DNA of 64,000 nucleotides, taken from contig JAGBFR010000050.1 of NCBI GenBank assembly GCA_017936375.1, forward strand, positions 55,597-119,596, written 5' to 3'. The stretch comes from Clostridia bacterium. Lineage in GTDB: Bacteria; Bacillota; Clostridia; Christensenellales; Aristaeellaceae. Position numbers and translations under genes: made by a program. Below the pieces are notes generated by a model. The model saw only the letters and a list, made by a program, of their open reading frames with translations. It was not told where the DNA came from and did no database searches. Positions 1,401 through 59,003 of this stretch are shown in pieces; the first letter of the stretch is position 1, and every line of letters begins with the position of its first letter.

Positions 1401-2423
1401 TCACCCATTCAGCCGGCAGACAGAATCGCGCTCGACGAGCGCAACATCCAGCATCACATGCCGCTGCTTCTTCTCCGGATTTTCAATGGCGTCGATCATC
1501 ATCTCCACCGCGCAGACAGCCTTTCTGTACATGTCCTGCTTGACCGTCGTCAGCGCGGGCGAAATCAGCCTCGAGGGCAGCGTATCGTCAAAGCCCACGA
1601 CGGAGATATCCCCCGGCGTCCGCATCCCCCTCGCCTGATAGGCGCGCAGGATGCCGCAGGCGATCAGATCCTCCGTGCAGACCATGGCCGTCGGCCGGCG
1701 CTGCATCCCTGCAAGCAGGCCGCCGATGATCTCGCCGCCTTCCTGATGGAAATATGCGTCAAACGTCCATGCCCTGTTCGGCGCAATGCCCTGCTCCGCC
1801 AGCGCGTCGCAGTAGCCCAGATAGCGGTCGTGGATGACCGAGGAATCGTCAATCGTCGGGCCGGCAAAGCCGATATCCCTGTGGCCCATGTCCAGCAGAT
1901 GCTTCGTGGAGATATACCCGCCCTTCTGGTCGTTGAGGCAGACGGAGTTCATCTCCATATCCTCATACACGCGGTCGATGACGACCGTGGGGGCCGCGCT
2001 CCTGCGGACGATGCGGCGGGTGATCTCATCCTCGTGCGGAATGACCATGATCGCGCCGTCCGCCTGCCAGGTGCGCATGAGCGTCAGCGCCTGATCCGCC
2101 TCCTTGAAGGAGCAGAGCATGACGTAGTATCCCTTCTCGCGCAGCAGCGTCTCCACAAGGCCGACCAGCTGGCCGACATAAGGATCCAGCAGCAGCGAGT
2201 CCGCCGTCTCATGCCAGAGCGGCAGCAGCAGCGCGATGATGTGCGACGCCTTTGAGATCAGGCTGCGCGCAGCCATATTCGGCTCATAATGATGCTTTTC
2301 AATGATCTCGCGCACGCGCTCGGCCGTCTTTTTGGAGACCTTGGAGGTCTTGTTGTTGATGACGTTGGAGACCGTCATCACGCTGACGCCCGCCTCCGCC
2401 GCAATCTCCTTGATCGTGATCAT
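1401..2423 (-). CDS. LacI family transcriptional regulator
   Basis: N-terminal HTH MITIKEIAAEAGVSVMTVSNVINN followed by a periplasmic-binding-protein-like sugar-binding fold. 340 aa. Confidence 0.9.
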   Translation of the reverse strand: MITIKEIAAEAGVSVMTVSNVINNKTSKVSKKTAERVREIIEKHHYEPNMAARSLISKASHIIALLLPLWHETADSLLLDPYVGQLVGLVETLLREKGYYVMLCSFKEADQALTLMRTWQADGAIMVIPHEDEITRRIVRRSAAPTVVIDRVYEDMEMNSVCLNDQKGGYISTKHLLDMGHRDIGFAGPTIDDSSVIHDRYLGYCDALAEQGIAPNRAWTFDAYFHQEGGEIIGGLLAGMQRRPTAMVCTEDLIACGILRAYQARGMRTPGDISVVGFDDTLPSRLISPALTTVKQDMYRKAVCAVEMMIDAIENPEKKQRHVMLDVALVERDSVCRLNG

Positions 2424-2513
2424 CCGCGCTCACCTGCCCTTCCGGTATATCGTAAAACCCTACAACATAATAACGAATTCCCGGCCTTTTGTCAATCCAA
2501 TCCCATGCCGCGC

Positions 2514-2555
2514 ACAAAGAAAGAGCGCCCGGCGCGGAAAGTCGCCCGGACGCTC
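2514..2555 (-). terminator. intrinsic terminator after the ABC exporter pair
   Basis: 10-bp GC-rich stem (GAGCGTCCGG/CCGGGCGCTC) followed by TTTCTTTG on the minus strand, just downstream of the stop at 2568. Confidence 0.5.
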
Positions 2556-2567
2556 CTTTATTTTTTA

Positions 2568-4382
2568 TCAGCCGGCGGAAAAGAGGCTGCTCGTCGCCTC
2601 GTCCTCGTACTGGCGGGTGTAGAGATTGTAATAATGGCCGCGCGCGGCGATGAGCTCCTCGTGCCTGCCCTGCTCGATGATCTTGCCGTCGCGGACGACG
2701 AGGATCAGATCCGCATGGCGGACGGTACTCAGCCTGTGCGCGATGACCAGCGAGGTGCGGCCCTTGATGATCGTCTCAATCGCAGACTGGATTTTCTGCT
2801 CGGTCAGCGTGTCGACGGAGGCCGTCGCCTCGTCGAGCACGAGAATGCGCGGATCGGCGAGGATCGCGCGGGCAAAGGAGATCAGCTGCTTTTCGCCGGT
2901 GGAGAGCATGTCGCCGCCCTCGCCGACGTCGCTGTCGAGCCCCTTGTCCATGCGGTCGACCACCTCCTGCGCGGAGACAAGCGCCAGCGCGCGGCGGATC
3001 TCCTCCTCCGTGGCGTCAGGATTGCCGTAGAGCAGGTTTTCCCGCACGGTGCCGGAGAAGAGATGCGGCGTCTGCAGGACATAGCCGATCGCCGAATGCA
3101 GCCAGAGCTGCGAGCGCTCGCGCGCGTCCCGCCCGTCGATGAGCACCTGACCGCGCGTGGGCTCAAAGAAGCGGCAGACGAGATTGACCAGCGTGCTCTT
3201 GCCCGCGCCCGTCTCGCCGACGATGGCGATGTTCGAGCCGAAGGGGATCTTCAGGCTGAAGTTTTCCAGCACATACTCGTCCCCGTCCGGGTATTTGAAA
3301 TCGACGTCCCTGAATTCGATGTCGCCGCGGATGGGCTCCCAGTTTTCCCGCTTGGGATGGAAGGCGTCGCCGTACTTTGCAATGACCTCGGGCGTGTCCG
3401 CCACGTCGGAGGTCGTCTCCAGCAGGCGGGAGAAGCGCTCGATATTCACCTGCGTGGTGATCAGCTCCGAGATCGCGTCGATGATCCAGCGGACGGGCTC
3501 CATCATGCCCTGCGCATAGGACATGAACATGGAGAACGTGCCGACCTCGCTCGCGGCGATATACCCGCCCCGCCAGAGAACGACCGCCAGCGCAAGGGAG
3601 GAAGCCATGTTCATCGTCGCGGCGAAGAGACCGCGCAGATGCGCCGCATGGACGGACCTGCGCCGGATCGCGCCGGTATCCTTGAGGAAGTCGCGCGCCA
3701 TCTTGTCCTCGATGACGAGCGCCTTGATCGTCTTCGCGCCGGTGATGCCCTCGTTAAAGTCGCTGGTGATCTGCGAATTGAGCTCGCGCACCTCGCGGTT
3801 GACGCGGATGAGCTTCGTCTGGAAGACGGAAAAGAGGACGACGAGCAGCGGCAGAATCGCGATGACCAGCAGCGCCAGCCTCGCATTGACTGCCAGCATC
3901 ACCAGCACCGCGCCGATGAGATAGGACAGGTGCCACACGCTGTCCATCAGCGACCAGGAGACCAGCGAGCCGATGCGCGAGGTATCGCTGATCACGCGCG
4001 CATGGATGTAGCCCACGCTGTTCTGATTGAAATAGGAGAAGGACAGCGTCTGCAGATGGCGGAAGGCCGCGTTGCGCAGGTCGCGATTCACGCCGACCTC
4101 CACCTTCATCGCATTGTTGCAGGAGATGTAATTGACCACGCCCGTCAGAAAGACGACAACCACGTAAACCGCGATGAACAGCGGCAGCCCGTCTAGCGTG
4201 CCCTTGGCGATAAAGTGATTGAGCGCATAGCGCTGGAACTGGGGGATCAGCAGGTCGATGCCCGTGGAGAGCAGGCCGCAGGCGACCATTGCCGCGACGA
4301 GGCCGCGGAATTTCTTCATAAAGGGCAGCACCTTGCCGATGCCGAAGAAGGGCAGCGAGCGCTTTTCATTGTCTCTCTTCAT
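2568..4382 (-). CDS. ABC transporter permease/ATP-binding protein (type I exporter half-transporter)
   Basis: 604 aa. Six-TM N-terminal domain plus an NBD with Walker A GETGAGKST, signature LSTGEKQ and Walker B ILVLDEA. Confidence 0.9.
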   Translation of the reverse strand: MKRDNEKRSLPFFGIGKVLPFMKKFRGLVAAMVACGLLSTGIDLLIPQFQRYALNHFIAKGTLDGLPLFIAVYVVVVFLTGVVNYISCNNAMKVEVGVNRDLRNAAFRHLQTLSFSYFNQNSVGYIHARVISDTSRIGSLVSWSLMDSVWHLSYLIGAVLVMLAVNARLALLVIAILPLLVVLFSVFQTKLIRVNREVRELNSQITSDFNEGITGAKTIKALVIEDKMARDFLKDTGAIRRRSVHAAHLRGLFAATMNMASSLALAVVLWRGGYIAASEVGTFSMFMSYAQGMMEPVRWIIDAISELITTQVNIERFSRLLETTSDVADTPEVIAKYGDAFHPKRENWEPIRGDIEFRDVDFKYPDGDEYVLENFSLKIPFGSNIAIVGETGAGKSTLVNLVCRFFEPTRGQVLIDGRDARERSQLWLHSAIGYVLQTPHLFSGTVRENLLYGNPDATEEEIRRALALVSAQEVVDRMDKGLDSDVGEGGDMLSTGEKQLISFARAILADPRILVLDEATASVDTLTEQKIQSAIETIIKGRTSLVIAHRLSTVRHADLILVVRDGKIIEQGRHEELIAARGHYYNLYTRQYEDEATSSLFSAG

Positions 4383-9455: not shown

Positions 9456-9580
9456 GGAGCCGTACCATAGCGGACGCTTCCATTCCCTTCCTTTATCGGC
9501 AATTAAAACAAAGAATTACACGATGGATTCCATTGATATTTTGCCGATAAGGGAATATAATATACATGGAGGCTGATCAT

Positions 9581-10471
9581 ATGAAGTATTGTTCTGTAGC
9601 TGAAATCGCGAAAAAATGGAATATCTCCGAGCGAGCCGTTCGGAATTACTGCGCTCAGGGCCGTATCCCAGACGCCTTCCTGACAGGCAAGACATGGAAT
9701 ATACCGGAGAACGCAGAAAAGCCCTCTCGTATTCCCAGAGCAAGGAAAACCCCTGAAACGCTGCTCGAGTATTTGAGAAGAGAACAGGAAAGCAAGCTTT
9801 CCGGCGGTATTTATCATAAAGTCCAGATTGATCTGACATACAACTCCAATCACATCGAAGGCAGCCGCCTGACGCACGACCAGACGCGCTACATCTTTGA
9901 GACGAATACCATCAGCTTCACTGATCATGCCGTAAGCGTGGACGACGTTGTCGAGACAGCGAATCACTTCCGCTGCATTGATATGATCATCGATCACGCA
10001 GATCATCTGCTCAGCGAACGCTTCATCAAGCAGCTGCACGGAACGCTGAAAGCCGGCACAAGCGACAGCCGCAAGGATTGGTTTGCCGTTGGCGATTACA
10101 AGCGCCTGCCTAATGAAGTCGGCGGAAGGGATACCACACTTCCAGAGCATGTTGCCGCAGAAATGCGGGATCTGCTGGCGTGTTACAACGCTGCGCAGAA
10201 AAAAACGCTGGAAGATATCATCGATTTCCATGTGTGCTTTGAGAGCATCCATCCTTTTCAGGACGGAAACGGACGCGTCGGCAGGCTCATTATGTTCAAG
10301 GAATGCCTGAGGCATAACATCGTCCCATTCATCATCAGCGAAGATCTGAAGATGTTTTACTATCGCGGACTGCACGAATGGAAAAATGAAACAGGCTTTC
10401 TGATCGACACGTGCCTGACCGCACAAGATCGTTTTAAGGCAATTCTGGATTATTTCCGGATACCGTATTGA
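9581..10471 (+). CDS. Fic family protein with N-terminal HTH
   Basis: Canonical Fic motif HPFQDGNGRVGR. Upstream SNHIEG matches the (S/T)xxxE(G/N) inhibitory-helix motif. The N-terminus VAEIAKKWNISERAVRNYC is HTH-like. The GGAGG RBS favours the ATG at 9581. Local GC is lower than the flanks. Confidence 0.85.
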   Translation: MKYCSVAEIAKKWNISERAVRNYCAQGRIPDAFLTGKTWNIPENAEKPSRIPRARKTPETLLEYLRREQESKLSGGIYHKVQIDLTYNSNHIEGSRLTHDQTRYIFETNTISFTDHAVSVDDVVETANHFRCIDMIIDHADHLLSERFIKQLHGTLKAGTSDSRKDWFAVGDYKRLPNEVGGRDTTLPEHVAAEMRDLLACYNAAQKKTLEDIIDFHVCFESIHPFQDGNGRVGRLIMFKECLRHNIVPFIISEDLKMFYYRGLHEWKNETGFLIDTCLTAQDRFKAILDYFRIPY

Positions 10472-11697: not shown

Positions 11698-12018
11698 TTG
11701 AACGAGAGCATCTCCCTCACCGAATCCACCTATTACATCCTGCTTTCGCTGGTCACGCCGCAGCATGGCTACGGCATCATGCAGACGACGGAGCGCCTCT
11801 CCGGCGGCAGGGTCCGCCTCGCGGCGGGCACGCTCTACGGCGCGCTCAGCGCCCTGTGCGAAAAGGGATGGATCGCCCCGCTGCCCGTCTCGCAGGACAG
11901 CAGAAAGAAGGAATATCAGCTCACCGACCACGGCCTCTCCGTCCTCAAGAGCGAGCTCGCGCGCCTGCGCAGTCTCGTGGAGAATGGGGACGCTATCCTG
12001 AAGGAGGAACTCAAATGA
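11698..12018 (+). CDS. PadR family transcriptional regulator
   Basis: Winged-helix signature YYILLSLVTPQHGYGIMQ...GTLYGALSAL. TTG start preceded by AAGGAGG. Confidence 0.85.
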   Translation: MNESISLTESTYYILLSLVTPQHGYGIMQTTERLSGGRVRLAAGTLYGALSALCEKGWIAPLPVSQDSRKKEYQLTDHGLSVLKSELARLRSLVENGDAILKEELK

Positions 12019-12524
12019 ACGAACAAAAGACCATCCGCAAGTGGTTCTGGGTATGGGACTTTGAAAAGGAAGAGCAGTGGCTCAATGAAATGGCCATGAG
12101 CGGCTGGGTGCTCAGCAGCGTGGGCTTCTGCAAATACACCTTCACCGCCTGCGAGCCGGGCGAATACACCATTCGCCTGGAAATGCACGAGCACGACGAA
12201 GCCTATCTCGCCTTCATGAAGGAGGCGGGCGCGGAGTATGTCGGCCGCATTGTACAGTGGATCTACTTCCGCAAGCGCACGGAGGACGGGCCCTTCGATC
12301 TCTTCTCGGATATCGATTCCCGTATTGCCCATCTGGAGAAGATCGGAAAGACACTCTCAGGCGTCGGGCTGGGCAATCTGGCCATCGGCCTGGCGGTGTC
12401 GATGAATTCCTTCGCCCCTCTCGGCTGGATCAATCTCCTCTGCGCGACGCTGCTCATGTACGCCCTCGGGCGCACGCACGGCAGGATCGATGAGATGAAA
12501 AAGGTGCGCCAGCTGCACGAATAA
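12015..12524 (+). CDS. DUF2812 domain-containing membrane protein
   Basis: ATGA overlap with padR. The N-terminus WFWVWDFEKEEQWLNEMAMSGW is typical of DUF2812 partners of PadR. Two C-terminal TM helices. Confidence 0.7.
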   Translation: MNEQKTIRKWFWVWDFEKEEQWLNEMAMSGWVLSSVGFCKYTFTACEPGEYTIRLEMHEHDEAYLAFMKEAGAEYVGRIVQWIYFRKRTEDGPFDLFSDIDSRIAHLEKIGKTLSGVGLGNLAIGLAVSMNSFAPLGWINLLCATLLMYALGRTHGRIDEMKKVRQLHE

Positions 12525-14878: not shown

Positions 14879-14938
14879 TCCGGACGGTACGTGTGCGGAG
14901 CGGAGTATCCAGACCATTCTCCGTCCGATCGGGCTATG

Positions 14939-14971
14939 TGCTGCTTGCATCAAAAATACATGTAAGGAGCA
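14939..14971 (+). promoter_or_regulatory. Shine-Dalgarno-sequestering hairpin upstream of the MFS gene
   Basis: TGCTGCTTGCAT pairs with ATGTAAGGAGCA (11 of 12 positions, 9-nt loop). The 3' arm contains the AAGGAG RBS of the ATG at 14977. Confidence 0.4.
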
Positions 14972-14976
14972 AAGCC

Positions 14977-16269
14977 ATGAAAAAGAATTCTCCCGCCGCC
15001 AGCCTGCGCCCCTTCCTGATGCTATGGGCTTCGCAGGGCGTTTCCTCCATGGGCACCGAAATGACCAATTACGCGCTGGTCATCTGGGTTTACAGTCAGA
15101 ATGGAACCGCGTCCAGCTTATCATTGCTGACACTCTGTTCCTTTCTGCCCACCATTCTGTTCCGCTTTATCGCCGGCGCACTTGCTGATCGATGGAATAA
15201 GAAGCGCATCATGCTGCTCTCAGATCTGCTTGCCGCCTGCGGAACCCTTACGGTCTTCGCGCTTTATTCATCGTCAGCTCTGACAGTTATTCATCTGTAC
15301 GCCATCAATACCCTGCTGAGCCTGATGAACGCATTTCAGGTGCCTGCGGCCTATGTGGCAACGAGTCTACTGGTACCCGAGGAGCACTATATCCGCGCAG
15401 GAGGCCTGCAGACGGTATCAGGCGCGCTCATATCCATCCTTTCGCCGGTATTGGGCGCAGTTGTCCTTGCGTGGGGCGGTATATCTGCGGTGCTGGCAAT
15501 TGATCTGGTCACCTTTGCCGTCGCTTTCCTGACCCTTCTATTCATCCGCATACCCAAGATTGAGAAAAAACAGGAATTGAGGGAATCTTTCCTGCAGACC
15601 AGTCTGTCAGGATTGCGGTATCTCAAGGAGCATCCGCATCTTCTGCATCTGATCGTGTACATTGCCGCTGTGAATTTCCTTGCCAAGCTGGGGCCGGATG
15701 GACTGATGTCCGCCTTCATCCTCAGCAGATCAAGCGGCAATCAGGCTGCACTGAGCGTTGTCCAGTCAGCCGTAGCGCTGGGGCTGCTGACAGGCGGCAC
15801 GCTGACATCCTTTGCAAAGCAATCGCAAAACCCAGTCAGAATGATTCTCATGATGTGCTGCCTCATTTTTACTGCAGGTATAGGCCTTTCGCTCAGCAGG
15901 AATACAATTGGCTGGTGCGTAACAGCATTCCTCCAGTATACCTTTGCAGCCGTCATGAATATTCACTGGGGCGCGCTTATGCGCTCAGAGGTTCCATTAG
16001 AGATGCAGGGACGCGTATTCTCAGCCAGAGATACCCTGCAGAATTGCACGATTCCTTTGGGGCTGTATCTGGGAGGCGTGCTTGCCGACCACGTATTTGA
16101 GCCGCTGATGAGCGGCAAATCCGCAGCGGCAGCATTGCTGGCTTCTGTCTTTGGCAGCGGAAACGGCTCGGGCATTGCTGTGTTGTTTTTTCTTGTTTCA
16201 GCAGCCGGGCTTATCCTCAGCGCAGTCTGCATGAGCACGAAATGCTTTAGCAAGCGTCATTCAGCTTAA
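14977..16269 (+). CDS. MFS transporter (Mef/EntS-like efflux type)
   Basis: About 12 TM helices. The N-terminal region LWASQGVSSMGTEM...ALADRWNKKRIM resembles macrolide/enterobactin exporter-type MFS_3 proteins. Start at MKKNSP after AAGGAG. Confidence 0.85.
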   Translation: MKKNSPAASLRPFLMLWASQGVSSMGTEMTNYALVIWVYSQNGTASSLSLLTLCSFLPTILFRFIAGALADRWNKKRIMLLSDLLAACGTLTVFALYSSSALTVIHLYAINTLLSLMNAFQVPAAYVATSLLVPEEHYIRAGGLQTVSGALISILSPVLGAVVLAWGGISAVLAIDLVTFAVAFLTLLFIRIPKIEKKQELRESFLQTSLSGLRYLKEHPHLLHLIVYIAAVNFLAKLGPDGLMSAFILSRSSGNQAALSVVQSAVALGLLTGGTLTSFAKQSQNPVRMILMMCCLIFTAGIGLSLSRNTIGWCVTAFLQYTFAAVMNIHWGALMRSEVPLEMQGRVFSARDTLQNCTIPLGLYLGGVLADHVFEPLMSGKSAAAALLASVFGSGNGSGIAVLFFLVSAAGLILSAVCMSTKCFSKRHSA

Positions 16270-16320
16270 TATGATCAAGGGCTGCTGCAGTTAATCCTGC
16301 AGCAGCTCTTATTCTATATC

Positions 16321-16522
16321 GGAGCATAGGGGAGTCTCCTCTCGCGCCTCGACGGCGCTCGGTCAGGGCGGCTCTGACGTGCCACTGGCACGTCATTCAC
16401 ATTCCGGGGAGCCTGCATAGTCGCGGTGTTCCACCGCTCCTTGCAGTTCCCCACGCTCCGCCTCGCTATTTCGCCCACTGGGCGCGCTCGGCTTCGGTGC
16501 CGCCCAGGTTCGACTCCCCTAT
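16321..16522 (-). ncRNA. expanded copy (A) of the tRNA-Ala-tail structured element
   Basis: Shares the outer about 45 nt and about 22 nt with the 110-nt copies. The inner helices are rewritten by compensatory changes, and there is an insertion of about 93 nt (16406-16498) that folds on its own. Lacks the terminal ACCA. Strand assignment is tentative. Confidence 0.45.
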
Positions 16523-16532
16523 TTTTCATAAC

Positions 16533-16567
16533 ATAAGAAAAAGCACCCACAAGTGGGTGCTTCTTAT
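16533..16567. terminator. bidirectional hairpin, stronger as a minus-strand terminator
   Basis: GCACCCA-CAAG-TGGGTGC. The minus strand is followed by TTTTTCTTAT. Confidence 0.55.
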
Positions 16568-16570
16568 GGG

Positions 16571-16712
16571 AAACGACTCAAATACTAAAACAATTCCCGG
16601 CTATCGTTTTGCAGTAGAACCTTTCGTTTTGCGAATAGATGTGTTGGGTGCAAACGACTCTGACTGGGTGTAAAACCGGCTCGGTGGGTACAACACCGGA
16701 CTTTCGTTTTGG
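16571..16712. repeat. repeat L1 (GGGTGCA and CTTTCGTTTTG motif array)
   Basis: Aligns directly with 18045-18175 and in inverted orientation with 17608-17700. Confidence 0.55.
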
Positions 16713-16806
16713 TATTTGCTGTTTCGTGTACTTTTACTTTTTTAAACATCAAAGAGTTGCGATATGCAGCAGCCTCTTCGAATGGCAATGAATCCATTTT
16801 TGCTAT

Positions 16807-17442
16807 TTATTCCTCGGTAAAGGGGGAATTTTCTGCTATTACAAGCTCCACACCCTCCATTTCTGATGCCAGGCGTTGTTCCCGCAACCATCGTGAATGG
16901 GCAGAACCGACTTCAGGCCATTCCAATTCTTCCCGTTTGATCTTTGCCAACTGAAACAACTCATCGTCCATAATGGATAAATAAACATCCATTTGTTTTT
17001 CAGGAGAGAGCCAAGCTTCAATCGCAGTAACCGCAATTCGCAGAGCATCGTAAGGTGGATATCCATATATCCCCGAGGAAATCAGAGGAAAGGCAACGGT
17101 ATGCGCATCGCAGTCCCTCGCATCAAACAAAGCAGACCAGTAACAGTTGTACAGCTGGATGGCTTCCTCTATGCTGCCCGTTTTATAGATTGGTCCAACG
17201 GCGTGAATGACGTATTTTGCAGGAAGGGCAAACCCCGGTGTAACAACTGTACTGCCAACCTCGCATCCGCCTATTCTATCGCAGGCTTCTTGCATCTGAT
17301 TTTGACCAGCAGCACGAAAAATTGCACCGCACACACCACCGCCTTTATGTCTTGCGAAATTCTTCAATTTTGCATTTGCTGCATTGACAATCGCATCGAC
17401 TTGCATGGTAGTAATATCTTGTTGAACAAATGTTAGCGGCAA
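16807..17442 (-). CDS. macro domain protein (ADP-ribose/O-acetyl-ADP-ribose hydrolase family) with C-terminal extension
   Basis: VDAIVNAANAKL and GGGVCGAIFRAAG motifs. TTG start 7 nt after AGGAGG. The last roughly 65 aa have no domain I recognise. Confidence 0.85.
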   Translation of the reverse strand: MPLTFVQQDITTMQVDAIVNAANAKLKNFARHKGGGVCGAIFRAAGQNQMQEACDRIGGCEVGSTVVTPGFALPAKYVIHAVGPIYKTGSIEEAIQLYNCYWSALFDARDCDAHTVAFPLISSGIYGYPPYDALRIAVTAIEAWLSPEKQMDVYLSIMDDELFQLAKIKREELEWPEVGSAHSRWLREQRLASEMEGVELVIAENSPFTEE

Positions 17443-17607
17443 ATAGATGCACCTCCTGATACTCGATCCTTGAGAACTTTCATGTCCATCGAATAGAAAA
17501 CCTCTCCGCTAGGCCAACTTATATTGATATTATATAATAACCCATCAATCCCCACAAGTAACAAACATAGTGCGAATAGGAAAACTCGTACTTTCTTAGT
17601 TTTTCAG

Positions 17608-17700
17608 GCATTTGCACCCAATCACAAAATAAAGGGCTATTCACAAAACGAAAGCCCTAATGTCAAAACGAAAGCCTGAGCAATCGTTTTGTTATGCACC
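17608..17700. repeat. repeat R1 (inverted copy of L1/L2)
   Basis: TTTGCACCCA followed by two CAAAACGAAAG units. This is the reverse complement of the motif order in L1 and L2. Confidence 0.55.
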
Positions 17701-17841
17701 CGCCGAGGAGAGTGGGTGCATTGTATCTATGCAGTTTTTCAGCGAAGATTTGTCCCGAGGATGGCAGCGATGGAAGTGGTATGCAAAACTGCAAAAATCC
17801 GGATACATTTGCCGTTTTACATTAGGAATCAGCAAGAGCAT

Positions 17842-17880
17842 AAAGAAAAGGACTGAAACCTTGTATCAAAGCTTCAGTCC
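17842..17880 (-). terminator. intrinsic terminator immediately after element B
   Basis: Minus strand GGACTGAAGC...GGTTTCAGTCC (10-bp stem) followed by TTTTCTTT. Confidence 0.65.
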
Positions 17881-17885
17881 TTTTA

Positions 17886-17995
17886 TGGTGGAGCATAGGG
17901 GAGTCTCCTCTCGCGCCTCGACGGCGCTCGGTCAGCCCGGTTCTGAGGCCCCACTGGGGCCTCATTCATCCCCGGGCCAGGTTCGACTTCCCTAT
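17886..17995 (-). ncRNA. tRNA-Ala-tail structured element, copy B
   Basis: 110 nt. The minus-strand 3' end GACTCCCCTATGCTCCACCA equals the last 20 nt of tRNA-Ala. 11-bp closing helix plus two inner hairpins. Confidence 0.45.
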
Positions 17996-18005
17996 TTTTC
18001 ATACC

Positions 18006-18043
18006 ATAAGAAAAAGCACCCACAAGTGGGTGCTTCTTCTTAT
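18006..18043. terminator. bidirectional hairpin, stronger as a minus-strand terminator
   Basis: Same GCACCCA-CAAG-TGGGTGC hairpin as at 16533-16567. Confidence 0.55.
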
Positions 18044-18044
18044 G

Positions 18045-18175
18045 GGCAATAACTCAAAAACTAATACAATTCCCGGCTATCGTTTTGCAATAGCCCTTTC
18101 ATTTTGCAATGGGTGCATCTGGGTGCAAATTGTAGCTCGGTGGGTGCAACGCCGAGCTTTCGTTTTGTCATTACC
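18045..18175. repeat. repeat L2
   Basis: Direct copy of L1 with three GGGTGCA units and CTTTCGTTTTG. Confidence 0.55.
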
Positions 18176-18257
18176 ATCAATTGTTTTGTATGGTATGAAT
18201 CCTATAACGGAAGGATCGGCAGTACGTCCTTTGATGATACATCATACGCAATACATT

Positions 18258-18310
18258 AAAGCAGCCCCGCATCTAACATGATGTGCTGGATGTGGGGCTG
18301 CTTTTGTTTG
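18258..18310. terminator. bidirectional hairpin downstream of the MFS gene
   Basis: AGCAGCCCCGCATC...GATGTGGGGCTGCT with T-rich flanks. Confidence 0.5.
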
Positions 18311-18346
18311 CAGATAAAAAACAGCCGATGTCCATAAATAAAGTTG

Positions 18347-19543
18347 TCAATCCTTCTGCACCTGATTCTTTTTTGTCATGCGGCGCATGATGATCAAGCC
18401 AATCATCAGCCCAATGGGGAAAATGCAGCCGACCTGTAGCCCAGCGCGGAGATCATCGCCCGCCAACTGGGTCGCATAGCCCACCATGCTGGGGCCGAAT
18501 GCGCCGCCGAGGTCGCCAGCCATGGCCAGCAATGCAAACAGGGCCGTGCCGCCAAGGGGCATCCGGGCGGAGGTGATGCTGAGGGTTCCCGGCCACATGA
18601 TGCCCACGGAAAAACCGCAGGCTATGCAGCCCACCAGTCCCCAGATGGGATTAGCCGTCATGGAGGCCAGCAGATAGCACACAAGACACAGCGCGCCGGA
18701 ACCCAGCATGAAACTGGTCAATTCCACCTTTTCGCCGTATTTTCCATACAGCACACGGCTGATACCCATGGTGATGGCGAACAGGCAGGGCCCCAACAGA
18801 TCGCCCAGCGTTTTGCTCAGCCCCAGCGCAGCCTCTGCATAGGCGGAGGCCCACTGTGCCATTGCCAGTTCGGATGCACCGGAGCACACCATCAGCAGCA
18901 CGGCCAGCCAGAACAGCGGCGCTTTGCATAGCTGCCGGATGGTCATGCCCTGACCGTCCTCCACCAGATGCTCAATGGGGCAGCGCAGGAAATTGACAAT
19001 GTTCCACAGGGGGACAATGGCCCAGAGGCAGGCAAGGATCTTCCAGCACGCCACGCCGAACACGGAAAAAAACACCGTGGATAAAAGCACCACAGCCACC
19101 GAGCCCCAGCAGTAGAAGGAATGAAGCAGGCTCATCACGGCGTCCTTGTTATCAAAGGGACAGGCCTCCACAATGGGACTGCCCAGCACTTCCATCAGGC
19201 CGCTGCCAATGGCATACAGAATGACGCACAGGATCACACCGATGAACGGATCACCCAGCATCTCCGGCAGAAAAGCCAATCCGGCCAGTCCCAGCGCAGA
19301 GGTGACCTGCGACCCGACAATCGCCCGACGATAGCCGATCTTGTCCACGTACTGGGCACAGAGAGCGTCCACGATCAGCTGCGTCAGAAAGAATGCGGTG
19401 GGGATCAGCGCGATATGCCCCAGGCTGATCTGGTAGTCCTTGTGGAAGGTCAGGAACAGCAGGGGCGCAAAGTTTGCGCAGATCGCCTGGGTGATAAAGC
19501 CCAGATAGCAGGCCATGAGTGTCTTGCGGTAGTTCTTCTGCAT
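18347..19543 (-). CDS. MFS transporter
   Basis: 398 aa, about 12 TM helices. Divergent from an AraC-family gene. Confidence 0.85.
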   Translation of the reverse strand: MQKNYRKTLMACYLGFITQAICANFAPLLFLTFHKDYQISLGHIALIPTAFFLTQLIVDALCAQYVDKIGYRRAIVGSQVTSALGLAGLAFLPEMLGDPFIGVILCVILYAIGSGLMEVLGSPIVEACPFDNKDAVMSLLHSFYCWGSVAVVLLSTVFFSVFGVACWKILACLWAIVPLWNIVNFLRCPIEHLVEDGQGMTIRQLCKAPLFWLAVLLMVCSGASELAMAQWASAYAEAALGLSKTLGDLLGPCLFAITMGISRVLYGKYGEKVELTSFMLGSGALCLVCYLLASMTANPIWGLVGCIACGFSVGIMWPGTLSITSARMPLGGTALFALLAMAGDLGGAFGPSMVGYATQLAGDDLRAGLQVGCIFPIGLMIGLIIMRRMTKKNQVQKD

Positions 19544-19661
19544 CAGGAGTCACTCCTTGTTGTTGTTGATGATATTATATCCCAATACGGCGGCGAAGTC
19601 ATTGAAAAGAATCCCTGAAATATGATACAATATCACAAACAATGCAAATGGAGAAGAAGCT

Positions 19662-20549
19662 GTGAAGCCTGTACACACCTTTCCCCGCATCGCAACGGAT
19701 CAAACGCTCCGCGAGACAGTCAGCCACGGAAGCCTGGATTATCCCTTTCAGTATTATCTTGAAAACGTGTGGGAGTTTGATCTTCACTGCATCGACTGGC
19801 ACTGGCATCCCGAATTGGAGATGATCTATGTGAACAGCGGTGAAACCCTGGTGTCCATCGGCGGCGAACAGGTGCCCGTGCCGGAGGGCTGCGGGATGCT
19901 GATTAATGGGCGCATGGTGCATCGCTTCCAGTCAGAACGCAGCACCTGGATGCCCAACATCGTTTTTTCGCCAGCACTTCTTGCGCCGGAGGGCAGCCTC
20001 ATTTACCGCAGGTACGTCCAGCCGCTGCTGGAGGGCGGCTTTTCCTACTGCCTATTCGATCCACAGATCACCTGGCACGGAGAAGTGCTGCGGCTCTTGC
20101 GGATGATCTTCTCCGATCACGAAAAAGGCGATGTCAGCCAGCTGCGCACGCTGCGGCTGCTGCTGGAGATGTGGGAGATCATCGTGAGTCATGTGGAAAT
20201 ATCCCCTGCCTCCGGCAGCAGCCGACGCACCGGGGAGCAGGCCAGACTGCAGATGATGCTGCAATTCATCCAGGACCATTACCGCGAGCCGATCACCCTG
20301 CAGCGCATTGCGGATTCTATCTACATCAGCAAAAGCAGCGCCCTGCAGATCTTTCACGAGGGGATCCACCAATCCCCTGTGGCCTATCTGATCAATTACC
20401 GGTTGAACTGCGCCGCGCAGCAGCTGCGCACCACCGAGCGGACAGTCGCCGCCATTGCGGCGGATACCGGTTTTTCCAGCGCAGGCTATTTCTGCCGCAG
20501 GTTCCGGGAGCTGTATGGCGTTACTCCGCAGCAATACCGTTCGCGCTGA
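19662..20549 (+). CDS. AraC family transcriptional regulator
   Basis: N-terminal cupin-like sensor and C-terminal double HTH (QRIADSIYISKSSALQIFHE...AADTGFSSAGYFCRRFRELYGVTP). GTG start. Confidence 0.85.
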   Translation: MKPVHTFPRIATDQTLRETVSHGSLDYPFQYYLENVWEFDLHCIDWHWHPELEMIYVNSGETLVSIGGEQVPVPEGCGMLINGRMVHRFQSERSTWMPNIVFSPALLAPEGSLIYRRYVQPLLEGGFSYCLFDPQITWHGEVLRLLRMIFSDHEKGDVSQLRTLRLLLEMWEIIVSHVEISPASGSSRRTGEQARLQMMLQFIQDHYREPITLQRIADSIYISKSSALQIFHEGIHQSPVAYLINYRLNCAAQQLRTTERTVAAIAADTGFSSAGYFCRRFRELYGVTPQQYRSR

Positions 20550-20746
20550 TGGGAGTTACTTGCATTCGCAAAACGCAAGCCCGAGTAATCGATTTGTTAA
20601 GCATCCACCGGGGAGAGTGGGGACATTTTATCTATGCAGTTTTTCAGCGGAAATTTGTCCCGAGGATGGCGGAGAAGGAAACTTACCACAATCACTCATA
20701 TTCCCGGGTGCATTTGCCGTTTTACATTAGGAATCAGCAAGAGCAT

Positions 20747-20785
20747 AAAGAAAAGGACTGAAACCTTGTATCAAAGCTTCAGTCC
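20747..20785 (-). terminator. intrinsic terminator immediately after element C
   Basis: Identical to the hairpin at 17842-17880. Confidence 0.65.
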
Positions 20786-20790
20786 TTTTA

Positions 20791-20900
20791 TGGTGGAGCA
20801 TAGGGGAGTCTCCTCTCACGCCTCGACGGCGCTCGGTCAGCCCGGTTCTGAGGCCCCACTGGGGCCTCATTCATCCCCGGGCCAGGTTCGACTCCCCTAT
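20791..20900 (-). ncRNA. tRNA-Ala-tail structured element, copy C
   Basis: 110 nt with one private substitution relative to B and D. Confidence 0.45.
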
Positions 20901-20910
20901 TTTTTATACC

Positions 20911-20938
20911 ATAACAAAAACCACCCTTCCGGGTGGTT
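20911..20938 (-). terminator. terminator hairpin between elements D and C
   Basis: Minus strand AACCACCC-GGAA-GGGTGGTT followed by TTTGTTAT. Confidence 0.5.
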
Positions 20939-20946
20939 CTTTGTTA

Positions 20947-21056
20947 TGGTGGAGCATAGGGGAGTCTCCTCTCGCGCCTCGACGGCGCTCGGTCAGCCCG
21001 GTTCTGAGGCCCCACTGGGGCCTCATTCATTCCCGGGCCAGGTTCGACTCCCCCAT
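20947..21056 (-). ncRNA. tRNA-Ala-tail structured element, copy D
   Basis: 110 nt with two private substitutions. Confidence 0.45.
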
Positions 21057-21066
21057 TTTTTGTACC

Positions 21067-21094
21067 ATAACAAAAACCACCCTTCCGGGTGGTT
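21067..21094 (-). terminator. terminator hairpin after tRNA-Ala
   Basis: Same hairpin as at 20911-20938. Confidence 0.5.
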
Positions 21095-21102
21095 CTTTGT
21101 TA

Positions 21103-21178
21103 TGGTGGAGCATAGGGGAGTCGAACCCCTGACCTTTTGAATGCCATTCAAACGCGCTACCAACTGCGCTAATGCCCC
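21103..21178 (-). tRNA. tRNA-Ala (anticodon GGC), CCA encoded
   Basis: Hand-folded 76-nt cloverleaf: acceptor GGGGCAT/ATGCTCC with G3:U70, D arm GCGC/GCGC, anticodon stem TTTGA/TCAAA with loop ATGGCAT, T arm AGGGG-TTCGACT-CCCCT, then ACCA. Confidence 0.9.
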
Positions 21179-21191
21179 GTCAACATTACAT

Positions 21192-21220
21192 ATTATAGCG
21201 TAGACGGGGTTGGAAGTCAA
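21192..21220 (-). promoter_or_regulatory. sigma-A promoter of tRNA-Ala
   Basis: The minus strand reads TTGACT, a 17-nt spacer, then TATAAT, about 14 nt upstream of the mature 5' end. Confidence 0.65.
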
Positions 21221-21254
21221 TACTGAATTTTCTCTTTTTCGCAAATTCTCGCGC

Positions 21255-22289
21255 TTATTCCCATGCCCGGCTGAGCGTCACCCCGCGGAAGTAGTGCAGC
21301 ACGATCTCCTGCGCAGTCCTCCCCTGCCTCGCCATGGCGTTTGCGCCCCACTGGCTCATGCCCACACCGTGACCATAGCCCTTGCCGCGCATGACGACTT
21401 TCCCATCCTCCACGCGGATGCTCTCAAGCAGGCAGGAGCGCATTTTCGTCGACCCGATCGCAATGCGGAAGGCCGGGGCGGAGACCTCCTTCCCGGAGAT
21501 CAGCAGCGTCATCGCGCGGCCCGATTCGCCCCGCTGTCCGATGGAAATCCCTGTCAGCTCGCCGGCCGATGCGCCTGCGTCCTTCGCGGCGGCGAGCACC
21601 TCTTCCGCCGTAAAGACCGCCTCCCAATTCGCAGCCTCCGGCGGCGCTTCGTCATCCTCCATGCCCCGGACGCACTGCGTGTAGCCCGGCTCCGCCTTCT
21701 CGTAATCAAGGCCCTCCTTCGCCCGCGCGGTCAAGCCGCCCGAATGCGCATGGAACCACGCATACGGCAATTCGCCGCCGGCATTGAGCACGAGGCCGCG
21801 CGTCTCCTGCACCGCCCGGCGAATTCTGTCGTTAACAGCGTCCGGGTTATAGGCCTGCGCCTCACGGATATCCGTGGAGATGTCCGCGCCGTCGTACATC
21901 GATTCCTTCTGCGAGACAAACTGCAAAACGAATGTGCGCGCGAGGATCGCCTGCGCCTTGAGCGCCTCCAGCGGCCAGTCGCCCGCCATCTCCCCGGCGA
22001 GCACCGCCGGCAGGTAATCCTCCACGGACAGCTCCTCCATCGTTTCCCTGTCCACGTCATAGACCTTCAGCATCGGAACGCCGTCCGCCCCCGCCGCAAG
22101 GCGCTCGGGCACCAGCTCCGCCGCCATGCCCGGCTCTGCGGAGGGCTGCGCCGTCGCCTGCGGCGTATTCTCCGGCTCGGGCAGCGCGGGCTGATCCGCC
22201 CCGCCGGAGCGCCTTGCGCAGCCGCTCATGAGCATCAGCGCCATGATCATCAGCGCCGCCAGCATGTTCCTCATCTTCATACCCTTCAC
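21255..22289 (-). CDS. spoIID: SpoIID/LytB domain protein (stage II sporulation protein D-like)
   Basis: Lipoprotein-like signal, AQAILARTF, WFHAHSGGLT and GHGVGMSQWGA motifs. Confidence 0.85.
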   Translation of the reverse strand: MKGMKMRNMLAALMIMALMLMSGCARRSGGADQPALPEPENTPQATAQPSAEPGMAAELVPERLAAGADGVPMLKVYDVDRETMEELSVEDYLPAVLAGEMAGDWPLEALKAQAILARTFVLQFVSQKESMYDGADISTDIREAQAYNPDAVNDRIRRAVQETRGLVLNAGGELPYAWFHAHSGGLTARAKEGLDYEKAEPGYTQCVRGMEDDEAPPEAANWEAVFTAEEVLAAAKDAGASAGELTGISIGQRGESGRAMTLLISGKEVSAPAFRIAIGSTKMRSCLLESIRVEDGKVVMRGKGYGHGVGMSQWGANAMARQGRTAQEIVLHYFRGVTLSRAWE

Positions 22290-22427: not shown

Positions 22428-23714
22428 TCAGTAGTTGACGTTGAGCGTGGAGACATAGGCCACGCCGCCGTCGATGAGAATCATGCAGACGCTCGTGCCA
22501 TACTGCAGCATGGTCGCCTGCTTGCCCGGCTGGACGATCGTCTTGAGCGAAGCCAGCGCGGAGTCGTTGAAGATGTGGATATTCTGGCTGCTGCTGCCGT
22601 AGGCGACAGCCAGCGTGATCTGCGTGCCGGCCTTCGGCGTGTTTTCCACGCCCGGATACTGCGGCTTCGGGGTGATGTACTGCACCAGCGGCGTCGGCGT
22701 CGTCACCGGATAATACGGCTTCGGGGTGATATACTGCACCAGCGGCGTCGGCGTTGCCGCCGGGTAATAGCCGCTCGGCGGCAGATAATTGCCGTCAAAG
22801 CTCAGGTAGCGCGTCATCATATAGCCGTGCTTCGTGCCGACATAGACCTCGCACCACGTTGCGCCATAGCCCACGACCTTGACCTGCGTGCCGTTGCGGT
22901 ACTGGCCGATGGAGCGCGCGGACTGGGACGGCGTCTCGCGCAGGTTGAGCACCTGCGTACTGATCGGATTGTTGACAAAGGCGATACGGACGGCGGTCTG
23001 CGTGCCGGAGGACGAGCCTGTATTGCTGCCCACCGTGCTGCCGGAGCCGGAGATATACTGCGTGGACATAAAGCCCGTCATGCCGTTTGCAGAAATTCTG
23101 TACCAGCCGTTGCCCTTGAGCAGAATCGTAACCTGCGTGCCGGAGGCCAGCGTGCCGATGCTCGAATACCCGGAGCCCGGGCCGGAGCGGACGTTGACCC
23201 TGCCGCCATTGCGGGTGGTCACGGTCGCTGTGCTCACGCCGCGCTCAATCAGGGAATCGTGCATGTAGCCGGTATAGGTATATCCATTCTGCACGACGGA
23301 CACATAATTCCACTCATAGGAATCATTGAGAATCGTCACCGCAGAGCCAGACGTCGCGCGCACGACCACACCGTAGGACAGCGACGGGCCGCTGCGCAGA
23401 TTGACATAGCCGCCGTTGGCGTACTTGACCGTCGCGCTGCCGGCGTTCGCGCCCAGATTCAGATAATTGGCGGACATGTAGCCGCTCTTCCCATCCAGCG
23501 TCCTCACCTGCCACCAGCCGTTGCCGGCATTCTGCTGCAGGATGACCCACGAACCTGTATTATACTTGCCAAGGCTGCGGCTCGACATGCTGGCATACTC
23601 GCGCAGATTCAGCCTGCCTCCCTTGACCACAGCGTAATCCGCCGCCAGCGCGAGCGCAGGCAGCAGGAGCAGCAGCACAAGCGCTGCCAGAATCCGCCTT
23701 GAATTCTTCCTCAT
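22428..23714 (-). CDS. secreted protein with multiple bacterial SH3 (SH3b) repeats
   Basis: Signal peptide, then at least five repeats of the pattern G..VNLRSGPS..Y..IG....G..V. Tandem proline-rich repeat PTPLVQYITPKP x2. Confidence 0.7.
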   Translation of the reverse strand: MRKNSRRILAALVLLLLLPALALAADYAVVKGGRLNLREYASMSSRSLGKYNTGSWVILQQNAGNGWWQVRTLDGKSGYMSANYLNLGANAGSATVKYANGGYVNLRSGPSLSYGVVVRATSGSAVTILNDSYEWNYVSVVQNGYTYTGYMHDSLIERGVSTATVTTRNGGRVNVRSGPGSGYSSIGTLASGTQVTILLKGNGWYRISANGMTGFMSTQYISGSGSTVGSNTGSSSGTQTAVRIAFVNNPISTQVLNLRETPSQSARSIGQYRNGTQVKVVGYGATWCEVYVGTKHGYMMTRYLSFDGNYLPPSGYYPAATPTPLVQYITPKPYYPVTTPTPLVQYITPKPQYPGVENTPKAGTQITLAVAYGSSSQNIHIFNDSALASLKTIVQPGKQATMLQYGTSVCMILIDGGVAYVSTLNVNY

Positions 23715-23799
23715 TGATCTCACCAACCCTCTTGTCCTGTGTATACTAGACGAATGAGCATTCCGCTTTCATCCCGGTATTTTCCAATCATGTTCCTGA

Positions 23800-48374: not shown

Positions 48375-48539
48375 GCGCCCGCTTTCTCCCTCAGTCTGCC
48401 TCCGGCAGACAGCTCCCTCCCGGAGGGAGCCTGTTCCTCTAAGCCGCTCTGCATATCAGGCGCGCTGATCCGCAAGCCATCGCCGCCTCAAGCCTCCCTC
48501 CGGGAGGGAGGTGGCACGGCATAGCCGTGACGGAGGGAG
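48375..48539. repeat. 165-bp palindrome-rich direct repeat, copy 1
   Basis: 163/165 identical to 48990-49154. Contains five hairpins (for example CCTCCCTC-CGG-GAGGGAGG and CACGGC-ATA-GCCGTG). Confidence 0.85.
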
Positions 48540-48563: not shown

Positions 48564-48965
48564 TTATTCTCTCCTCCATTGAATCCTCGGCAGCGTTTCA
48601 GCGGCAGCATCTGCACGTTTCTTCACTTGCGCTTCAATCATTGAGCAAACGCCCTCAAAATCATATCGAATACTTGCATTGGGAATCCGAATGACCTGTA
48701 TCCCGGCAGATTCGAGAAACTCCGTCCGAACCCTGTCATATCCAATGCCATGCTGATCATAATGCTGTGATCCATCCAATTCGACAACAAGCAGAGCCTG
48801 ATGGCAAAAGAAATCAACAATATAGCTTCCAACGGTTTTTTGTCGTTGAAAGTGAACCGGATATTCTCGCAGAAAATCATACCAGAGCTTGCGCTCCTCC
48901 CGGGTCATCTCCTTGCGCAAGTTCTGCGCCCGGGGAATCATCTTCCGATTATACTCAAGGGACAT
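48564..48965 (-). CDS. DUF559 (Vsr-like endonuclease fold) protein
   Basis: RAQNLRKEMTREERKLWYDFLR...FQRQKTVGSYIVDFFC...LVVELDG is the typical DUF559 signature. Low GC. Confidence 0.85.
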   Translation of the reverse strand: MSLEYNRKMIPRAQNLRKEMTREERKLWYDFLREYPVHFQRQKTVGSYIVDFFCHQALLVVELDGSQHYDQHGIGYDRVRTEFLESAGIQVIRIPNASIRYDFEGVCSMIEAQVKKRADAAAETLPRIQWRRE

Positions 48966-48989: not shown

Positions 48990-49154
48990 GCGCCCGCTTT
49001 CTCCCTCAGTCTGCCTCCGGCAGACAGCTCCCTCCCGGAGGGAGCCTGTTCCTCTAAGCCGCTCTGCATATCAGGCGCGCTGATCTGCAAGCCATCGCCG
49101 CCTCAAGCCTCCCTCCGGGAGGGAGGTGGCACGGCGTAGCCGTGACGGAGGGAG
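48990..49154. repeat. 165-bp palindrome-rich direct repeat, copy 2
   Basis: Abuts the stop codon of the GT4 gene at 49155. Confidence 0.85.
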
Positions 49155-58994: not shown

Positions 58995-59003
58995 AAAGCA
59001 CAA

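Follow-up and report, generated by a model that had tools for sequence, protein, structure and literature searches.

What are the four related elements that stand on the minus strand, at 16.3–21.2 kb, behind the tRNA-Ala(GGC) gene of a Clostridia bacterium (GenBank assembly GCA_017936375.1, contig JAGBFR010000050.1)? The stretch analysed was a 64-kb window of this contig, in which the array begins immediately 3' of the tRNA gene and comprises units D (20947–21056), C (20791–20900), B (17886–17995) and A (16314–16522), D being the nearest unit and A the most distal. Our analysis firmly established that the units are a real, widespread and apparently undescribed structured element of gut Clostridia and phages, that selection acts on their fold on the tRNA-sense strand, and that the adjacent tRNA or tmRNA serves as the template of their closing stem. 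As to what such an element does, we tentatively favour, from its sequence and surroundings, the reading that the units are a non-autonomous repeat module, most likely acting at the RNA level, which would be tied to integration sites at tRNA 3' ends, would multiply those sites, and would move with, or be duplicated around, integrating elements.

Unit architecture, covariation and strand

Each element is about 110 bases long and is closed by a stem built from a copied stretch of the 3' part of the gene next to it. A unit consists, in order, of the 5' arm, GAA, helix P2a, the loop UGAAUGA, hairpin P2b, UCAGAG, UGACCGAG, hairpin P3, CGAGAG and the 3' arm, with a three-way junction as its core and the outer stem P1 formed by the two arms. 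From differences between copy A and copies B–D, the initial annotation had proposed selection on single-strand secondary structure, whether of RNA or of single-stranded DNA (ssDNA), and had assumed the minus-strand, tRNA-sense reading. The broader alignment bore out both. Across 48 distinct copies, 94.1% of cells were paired, against 37–47% when the partners were slid; both sides changed in 22 of the 33 pairs, and none of 500 shuffles reached the observed covariation score. Covariation was found in all four helices, including P2a, P2b and P3, which have no relation to tRNA sequence, and whole-unit folds of the window copies gave z-scores of −5.5 to −6.1 against shuffles.

The strand was assigned from two features. 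Cells with G.U numbered 62, against 19 with A.C, and a G.U pair is conserved at the base of P2a in 32 of the 41 copies for which both letters are available. The invariant unpaired residues (GAA, UGAAUGA, GAG, UGACCGAG and CGAGAG) are purine-rich on the minus strand. Together, the G.U excess and the purine-rich residues place the fold on the tRNA-sense strand, as the assumed reading had it; they also lend it an RNA-like look, with which a folded DNA strand would be compatible as well. Tandem G.A pairs are possible in CGAG/CGAG, around P3, and in UGAA/GAG, in the P2 loop; these residues are invariant (without covariation), and their registers misfit the canonical kink-turn, with its 3-nt bulge followed by G.A and A.G pairs.

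These data bear directly on the idea that the units are nothing more than DNA palindromes or the remains of decayed attachment sites, whose single-strand fold is unconstrained. The units do stand at island borders and their arms are simple tRNA copies, whereas 22 pairs covary, the three internal helices owe nothing to tRNA sequence, loop conservation extends across several lineages of Clostridia metagenome-assembled genomes (MAGs) and phages, and the G.U to A.C asymmetry distinguishes the strands; we consider the idea hardly credible. With REP/REPIN, ERIC, BOX and Correia-type repeats, the units have in common that they are short, non-coding, multicopy, intergenic and stably folded, that they occur in either orientation (in phages) and that their presence varies. 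Unlike those repeats, they have arms tailored to the neighbouring gene, a branched core and invariant purine-rich loops, and no transposase family was found in the 127 open reading frames (ORFs) that flank units.

The junction also resembles that of the type III hammerhead ribozyme, in the three-way junction, in the motif order (C)UGA..GAG-stem-CGA.A and in the U-A pair at which the outer stem closes. A variant ribozyme, cleaving itself so as to divide tRNA read-through into unit lengths, would be in keeping with these junction sequences and the three-stem order, where (C)UGACCGAG-stem-CGAGAG is likened to the hammerhead CUGAUGAG-stem-CGAAAC, and with the tandem and phage occurrence of the units; moreover, theta ribozymes, which are small ribozymes, process tRNA trailers in gut phages. 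The defining core positions nevertheless fail. The position before UGA (hammerhead position 3) varies between C, U, G and A, one nucleotide is in excess at position 7, a G replaces the invariant A14, and position 17, which should be an unpaired non-G, is paired and reads G in 32 copies and A in 6. Neither the array stretch at E ≤ 10 nor a phage locus (L046) at E ≤ 1 matched a hammerhead or other ribozyme model in Rfam. The hammerhead was thus rejected as a candidate, and a variant ribozyme seems very unlikely.

Occurrence of the family

The family was recovered by pattern scans of genome, metagenome and viral collections together with R1, a covariance model built from 13 copies. The genome collection contained 10 loci, in MAGs labelled Clostridiales, Clostridia, Oscillospiraceae or Christensenellales, and the metagenome collection 19; the R1 search of these loci gave about 47 copies, and more than 60 were obtained overall. 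Many Clostridia MAGs and metagenomes share the common core GAA / UGAAUGA-hairpin-UCAGAG / UGACCGAG-hairpin-CGAGAG. The neighbours of the tRNA-linked units are tRNA-Ala(GGC), tRNA-Leu(GAG), tRNA-Trp, tRNA-Glu(CUC), tRNA-Ser(GCU) and tmRNA, and in every case the unit lies on the strand of the gene and immediately 3' of it. Arrays elsewhere have one to three units, compared with four in the window, and may mix alleles.

Known families did not account for these copies. At the Rfam 15 gathering threshold, tRNA alone passed in the 64-kb window; at E ≤ 10 over 16200–21300, only low-scoring spurious matches overlapped the core, for example RNAI with 25 bits where its threshold is 47, and at E ≤ 1 no family was found on L046. 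ARAGORN called only the genuine tRNA-Ala in the window and only genuine tRNAs or tmRNAs at the other loci; the units were not called, and they have in common with tRNA and tmRNA only the 3' 10–20 nt, with neither a cloverleaf nor a tmRNA domain. A blastn search of a tRNA-type unit against plasmid and phage collections gave no match, and a first viral scan with an 18-mer pattern returned only chance matches in GC-rich genes. Exact-protein look-ups for strain variants of the window locus returned the same architecture only. Full-text literature searches yielded no description of such an element.

The outer stem is templated on the neighbouring gene

In the window, the 3' arm GACUCCCCUAUGCUCCACCA is identical to the stretch of tRNA-Ala that begins midway in the T-loop and ends with the encoded CCA. 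The 5' arm AUAGGGGAGUCGAACC is reverse-complementary to the 3' half of the tRNA-Ala T-arm, its complementarity covering the 3' part of the T-loop, the 3' strand of the T-stem and the beginning of the acceptor strand. P1, the outer stem, therefore unites one direct and one inverted copy of the tRNA end. When arms were compared with genes in a matrix, the cognate gene gave identical runs of up to 20 nt with the 3' arm and complementary runs of 8–13 nt with the 5' arm; 3'-arm identity was shorter (5–8 nt) at L015, L023, L035 and in the truncated L025 unit. Non-cognate genes mostly gave runs of 4–8 nt, the exceptions being a chimeric L023 unit, with 14 nt to tRNA-Ala, and tmRNA against tRNA-Glu, with 9–12 nt (common T-loop). 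The boundary between the core and tRNA-derived sequence lies at about T-loop positions 55–57 in all six gene types. From there, the best-preserved units show 10–20 nt of identity for tRNA-Ala, -Leu, -Glu, -Ser and tmRNA; the sole Trp unit with a 3' arm in the displaced-fragment test is cut by the contig end. The extra GAACC of the 5' arm was considered as proof of tRNA pairing and rejected, since only GAA is universal and it is kept in phage copies without a tRNA too.

Two atypical units were noted. At L023 (120–232, minus strand), behind tmRNA, the unit combines a 5' arm that complements the T-arm of tmRNA with a 3' arm of the tRNA-Ala type (CCUAUGCUCCACCA); this chimera suggests recombination between units of different loci. 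At L015 (7914–7985), a short variant with a 5' arm, a GAGAG junction and a P3-like hairpin lacks the entire P2 domain and scores 16 bits with R1.

Arms that change with the target gene around a constant core raise the possibility of a targeting function. One form of it is a guide RNA for a trans-acting recombinase, with a logic like that of the IS110 bridge RNA, in which the core would be the protein scaffold and the arms would specify the DNA target. The arms are indeed reprogrammed to six target genes, the units are non-coding with no enzyme in cis among the 127 flanking ORFs, and the fold is strand-specific with RNA-like conserved loops. The likeness is one of logic only: the arms of a unit cover one target segment and pair with each other, whereas the guides of a bridge RNA are open internal loops that address adjacent segments. 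Neither the flanking ORFs nor the listed window Pfam families include a DEDD recombinase, no other candidate recombinase was found in the flanks, and phage-type arms match no obvious target. We regard a guide RNA of this kind as improbable. The broader notion that the units are miniature programmable integrative elements, whose core would be a scaffold of RNA or folded DNA and whose identical and complementary arms would steer a trans-acting recombinase to a chosen tRNA or tmRNA gene, appears unlikely. If true, it would account for the retargeting to six genes, the constant T-loop boundary, and the build-up of arrays and cargo cassettes, and arms that proved to be a targeting device would constitute a new, very small and reprogrammable site-selection module.

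The array in the window and its possible transcription

The features of the array, from the tRNA promoter to the distal edge, are as follows.

21220–21192, promoter-like site TTGACT-17-TATAAT of the tRNA-Ala gene (promoter scan)
21103–21178, minus strand, tRNA-Ala(GGC) with encoded CCA, the array head (ARAGORN; Rfam 68 bits)
21076–21093, minus strand, T1 terminator-like hairpin ACCACCC-GGAA-GGGTGGT with a U-run, in the spacer between tRNA and unit D
20947–21056, minus strand, unit D with 5' arm AUGGGGGAGUC, core and 3' arm GACUCCCCUAUGCUCCACCA (R1 138 bits)
20920–20937, minus strand, second T1 hairpin, inside the 156-nt tandem period
20791–20900, minus strand, unit C (R1 135 bits)
18016–18033, minus strand, T2 terminator-like hairpin GCACCCAC-UUGU-GUGGGUGC with a U-run, 5' of unit B
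17886–17995, minus strand, unit B (R1 133 bits)
16543–16560, minus strand, T2 hairpin 5' of unit A
16277–16310, plus strand, terminator-reading hairpin of the convergent MFS gene (14893–16269), at the distal array edge

Units D and C form a tandem repeat with a 156-nt period. A terminator-like hairpin lies 5' of every unit in the window, of type T1 at D and C and of type T2 at B and A.

This arrangement leads to another explanation, a small RNA of benefit to the host or the phage. The closing helix would mimic the acceptor/T-stem stack, tRNA-processing enzymes (RNase P, 3' trimming, CCA maintenance) would excise the unit from read-through, and the junction would bind a protein or an RNA. Consistent with this, units stand on the same strand as, and directly behind, the tRNA or tmRNA in all tRNA-linked cases, many of them end in a tRNA-like ...NCCA followed by a terminator, and some 5' arms lengthen into an acceptor-like helix of 4–6 bp with G3.U70 (L013, L014). 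The conserved unpaired residues are purine-rich, with possible tandem G.A pairs, and the units are retained across MAGs labelled Oscillospiraceae and Christensenellales and other Clostridia MAGs. A precedent exists in RNAC and RNAD of phage T4, whose genes adjoin the T4 tRNA cluster and which tRNA enzymes cleave. The units resemble these RNAs, and mascRNA-type ends, in standing beside tRNA genes and, in many cases, in an acceptor-like CCA 3' end; they differ in having neither T-loop nor elbow, and the likeness is one of position and ends, with no similarity of sequence known. The function of T4 RNAC and RNAD is itself still unknown (PMC9697503). Several observations weigh against a small RNA. 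The T-loop is replaced, so that the main element for recognition by RNase P and of the elbow is gone; acceptor-like pairing is just 2 bp in the window units; neither the Glu-type nor the phage-type units end like a tRNA at the 3' side; terminator-like hairpins separate the promoter from every unit; and variable copy number with chimeric and truncated units resembles a repeat more than a housekeeping gene. A small RNA is a possible explanation, though a doubtful one.

Copy A and its insertion

Unit A, the most distal and most diverged unit in the window, is composed of the following parts, all on the minus strand.

16512–16522, 5' strand of P1, AUAGGGGAGUC, the reverse complement of the 3' part of the tRNA T-loop, the 3' strand of the T-stem and the first 2 bases of the acceptor strand
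16506–16511, GAACCU junction
16499–16505, 5' strand of P2a, GGGCGGC
16406–16498, 93-nt insertion, private to copy A and self-folding into two hairpin domains
16373–16405, internal loop GGAAUGUGAAUGA, hairpin P2b GACGUGCC-AGU-GGCACGUC (16376–16394) and AGA loop strand
16366–16372, 3' strand of P2a, GCCGCCC
16337–16365, UGACCGAG, hairpin P3 CGCC-GUCGA-GGCG and CGAGAGGA, invariant in A–D
16314–16336, 3' strand of P1, GACUCCCCUAU plus GCUCC, matching the tRNA 3' end

Past GCUCC the sequence departs from the tRNA (GAUAUAG...), which marks the joint with the distal flank, and A is the only unit in the window whose tRNA identity ends at this point. The initial annotation had described copy A as a compensatory rewrite of both inner helices with an insertion of about 93 nt. 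In the aligned copies, the basal stem P2a reads GGCCCGG/CCGGGCU in B–D and GGGCGGC/GCCGCCC in A, with three double swaps between C-G and G-C and one G.U that becomes G-C; hairpin P2b reads GAGGCCCC-AGU-GGGGCCUC in B–D and GACGUGCC-AGU-GGCACGUC in A, with three double changes; and the UGAAUGA and UCAGA residues are identical in A and B–D. The compensatory differences thus stood as described. An in-place rewrite of a B–D-like copy did not, because the hairpin allele GACGUGCC/GGCACGUC also occurs in units at L026 and L033, so that copy A represents another lineage of the family. The tRNA-copied outer stem, the array behind the tRNA, the islands between copies and the widespread, phage-borne family are points beyond that annotation.

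The insertion measures exactly 93 nt, and its proposed helices GGGGA/UCCCC, CUGCA/UGCAG, GCGGUG-GAA-CACCGC and CGCCC-AGU-GGGCG were all present in the minimum-free-energy fold. Folded alone, it had a z-score of −3.5, and none of 200 shuffles was as stable. No counterpart was found in about 60 distinct copies (86 pattern matches including same-strain repeats) or in viral contigs, and the fold of the insertion is therefore without comparative support. The possibility of a nested second unit was rejected, as the local alignment score of 32 was not significant against a shuffle mean of 25.8 (sd 4.6). Copy A may tolerate the insertion because the site lies at the boundary between P2a and the internal loop.

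Islands between the units

Two inserts interrupt the array, island 1 between units C and B and island 2 between units B and A.

20569–20790, minus strand, left end of island 1, with T3 terminator (20755–20785) and conserved sequence to CTTGCGTTTTG, starting right after CCACCAUAA of unit C
18347–20549, cargo of island 1, an AraC-type regulator (19662–20549, plus strand) and an MFS transporter (18347–19543, minus strand)
18040–18167, minus strand, right end of island 1, bearing TGCACCCA motifs, three CAAAAYGAWAG sites and a terminal degenerate CCCAUAA
17644–17885, minus strand, left end of island 2, with T3 (17850–17880) and inverted CAAAACGAAAG sites
16807–17442, minus strand, cargo of island 2, a macro-domain protein
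16566–16711, minus strand, right end of island 2, homologous to its counterpart in island 1 and bearing three CAAAACGAWAG sites

Both inserts begin directly past the CCACCAUAA of a unit. Their left ends are 97% identical over 223 nt (part of the unit included) and 86% identical over a further 112 nt, and their right ends are homologous at lower identity. GC content at third codon positions (GC3) of the AraC and MFS island genes is 0.74–0.77, against 0.85–0.90 around them; the macro-domain ORF lay outside this scoring. At the island ends there are 10 clustered inverted CAAAAYGAWAG sites, where about 1.5 would be expected by chance, and the homology between ends ceases exactly at the innermost site. 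They have the appearance of terminal inverted repeats or of recombinase sites of the arm type. Clusters of them with TGCACCCA motifs were noted at 16601–16711, 17644–17691, 18077–18167 and 20569–20579. In the other fetched loci CAAAAYGAWAG was absent, bar one isolated match on an unrelated contig, and the CAAAACGAAAG end repeats were rejected as a family feature, being confined to the islands of this window.

Judged from its order of parts, the array with its islands looks like non-autonomous integrative elements in the layout attL – island – attP – island – attR. The listed Pfam families of the 52 window ORFs (25 of 47 and 25 of 38 families listed) included no integrase, recombinase, transposase or reverse transcriptase, and Pfam searches of the 127 flanking ORFs revealed no recurrent recombinase, transposase or reverse-transcriptase family. 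At one foreign locus (L011), an ORF with a recombinase zinc beta-ribbon of the large serine recombinase type (2415–3460, minus strand) runs into a GCUCCACCA-terminator-unit junction, and there an island appears to be integrated in a copy of the tRNA end. At L021, a prophage end adjoins the array. As the window islands and the inserts at these two loci join at or inside 3' arms, the 3' arms behave like additional copies of the tRNA-end attachment site.

Displaced 3' fragments of tRNA or tmRNA genes at the ends of genomic islands are Islander-type attachment sites (PMC4383910). Like these, the units carry a copy of the gene 3' part from the T-loop to CCA, stand in tandem behind one tRNA, have islands between them and, at L011, a recombinase gene at one junction. 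The block of identity with the tRNA 3' end, starting in the T-loop, that identifies a displaced fragment is present in the units; an integrase-bearing island between gene and fragment is not, since the window islands carry nothing but the AraC, MFS and macro-domain genes. Units D and C, like many foreign arrays, are free of cargo, and L011 is the only locus with a serine-recombinase gene at the junction. Unlike Islander-type sites, the units also possess a conserved covarying core of about 90 nt and an inverted copy of the target, many are cargo-free (periods of about 135–165 nt), the window islands are without integrase, and the phage copies have no tRNA sequence.

Beyond copy A, the MFS_3-type transporter gene (14893–16269) has a low GC3 of 0.60, so foreign DNA may reach past the array; no copies of the tRNA end were found distal to unit A.

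How arrays grow

A terminator-like hairpin was found 5' of 31 of 35 units and 3' of 23 of 35. At L016, at L020 and at unit A of the window, the terminator 3' of the last unit differs from that of the tRNA, as would be expected if insertion of units at the T-loop had displaced the original end outward. Other arrays have a different appearance. In those at L031 and L041 the identity extends about 50 nt beyond the tRNA end, and the Glu-type units (L026, L033) have 10 nt of tRNA identity with neither acceptor strand nor CCA; both features point to local tandem duplication. The L026 array mixes units of different alleles. Going by these patterns, insertion at the T-loop and local tandem duplication probably both occur.

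Phage copies and a possible folded DNA strand

The looser viral scan with R1 gave 16 further copies on 12 phage contigs, none of them beside a tRNA. Most are of the GGUAGCGAAG type, with arbitrary P1 arm sequence and, in several, an extra hairpin; the junction GGUAGCGAAG retains GAA with no T-loop partner. Contigs L045 and L058 instead carry tRNA-type units at contig ends. The phage copies gather near terminase, portal and capsid genes, and a related phage has no copy between its terminase and portal genes. Relative to the late genes, the copies at L022 and L049 lie on the same strand, and two at L046 and one at L055 on the opposite strand. Such a distribution would suit an independent RNA gene and a DNA-level, mobile or repeat element equally well. 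No recombinase, transposase or reverse transcriptase was found encoded beside the units in Pfam searches of 94 phage ORFs.

Individual phage-type copies were located at L046 (4409–4518, 9049–9150 and 12667–12787), L022 (2960–3064) and L049 (7279–7374), and the three at L046 have a common conserved downstream stretch (GUGCCAAUGGGGAAAAGA). At L045 (48–237, minus strand), a 190-nt unit contains two UGAAUGAC-hairpin-GUCAGA modules and two UGACCGAG motifs, its core being nested or duplicated; its minimum-free-energy fold was no better than shuffles (z = −0.9). The sequence GCGAAGC recurs at L044, L053 and L055, in the junction (GGUAGCGAAGCG) and in extra-hairpin loops (CAGCGAAGCUG); GNA-type triloops recur in the phage copies too. 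As DNA, GCGAAGC forms an unusually stable mini-hairpin.

Such mini-hairpins and triloops count in favour of a folded ssDNA recombination site, used in the manner of attC or the CTX-phage attP. Its annealed arms would rebuild the tRNA T-arm and acceptor duplex, and a recombinase would insert the unit, with or without cargo, to give cassette-like arrays. The inverted arms lie about 90 nt apart and form a duplex of target-gene sequence, the boundary near T-loop positions 55–57 is steady across six gene types, arrays hold 0 to 2.7 kb of cargo between units and can mix alleles, the fold is strand-specific, and the phage copies are independent of orientation. In their imperfect inverted repeats of about 60–150 nt, their retention of shape by compensatory change, their strand-specific fold and their cassette arrays, the units resemble attC and the CTX-phage attP hairpin. 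They are unlike both in forming a three-way junction, in having arms that copy a tRNA and in showing no association with IntI or Xer, and their junction and loop sequences are strongly conserved, whereas attC conserves mainly shape. No R''/R' boxes (RYYYAAC/GTTRRRY) were seen when the aligned ends (AUAGGGGAGUC/GACUCCCCUAU, or the corresponding arms for other neighbours) were read, no pattern search having been run. Adjacent intI and attI find no parallel, as the listed window families include no integrase and none recurs in the flanking ORFs, and no integrase was found beside the arrays. Phage-type arms are unrelated to any tRNA, Glu-type units could not restore one, and the overrun of about 50 nt at L041 and L031 indicates local tandem duplication. 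A folded ssDNA site is, in our judgement, not likely.

Weighing the repeat-module reading

Considering all the above, the units share single traits with attachment sites, attC, structured repeats and tRNA-linked RNAs, and they fail the defining tests of each. The non-autonomous repeat module that we favour would combine these traits in the following way. The fold would act in RNA produced by read-through of the tRNA promoter, with the core binding a partner. The module would be semi-selfish and non-autonomous, multiplying the tRNA-3'-end sequence that site-specific recombinases use for attachment, and it would spread through local unequal recombination and alongside integrating elements.

Several points weigh against this proposal. 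No convincing promoter was seen in the unit spacers, either by reading them or in the window promoter scan, and as the units also stand behind terminator-like hairpins, their transcription would rely on leaky termination. The strand signal is narrow, 32 of the 62 G.U cells coming from one conserved pair. Integron attC sites also show strand-specific covariation, and a folded ssDNA would look alike. The truncation of the Glu-type units means that a split tRNA could not be restored, and simple serial integration is thus insufficient for all arrays. The occurrence of phage copies in either orientation argues against a role within mRNA. Finally, the model does not account for the gain of a 5' arm matched to a new tRNA at a new locus.

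If the family is real, a widespread structured element of gut Clostridia and their phages is absent from current RNA catalogues. Its closing stem is re-templated on whichever gene precedes it, which joins structured non-coding RNA with tRNA-targeted genome integration, two subjects mostly studied separately. The family explains the assembly breaks behind these tRNAs and the pile-up of tRNA-end copies, which are potential landing sites for islands and prophages, and it should be of use to genome annotators and island-finding tools. Should it turn out to be only a processed small RNA or a selfish repeat, it is still a clean new family that covaries strongly and makes testable predictions.

Other observations in the window

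Three further features were noted away from the array. Direct repeats of 165 nt, 99% identical, at 48375–48539 and 48990–49154 surround a small ORF (48564–48965) with a GC3 of 0.48, which may be a small insertion; a DUF559 match was recorded among the ORFs of the window half that contains these repeats. The gene for an SH3-domain protein (22428–23726) contains a tandem 54-nt repeat, 89% identical, at 22652–22759, which encodes a repeated PTPLVQYITPKP. ORFs 9566–10471, 11856–12524 and 58758–59369 have GC3 values of 0.59–0.70, markedly below their neighbours, and may be acquired genes or miscalled frames.

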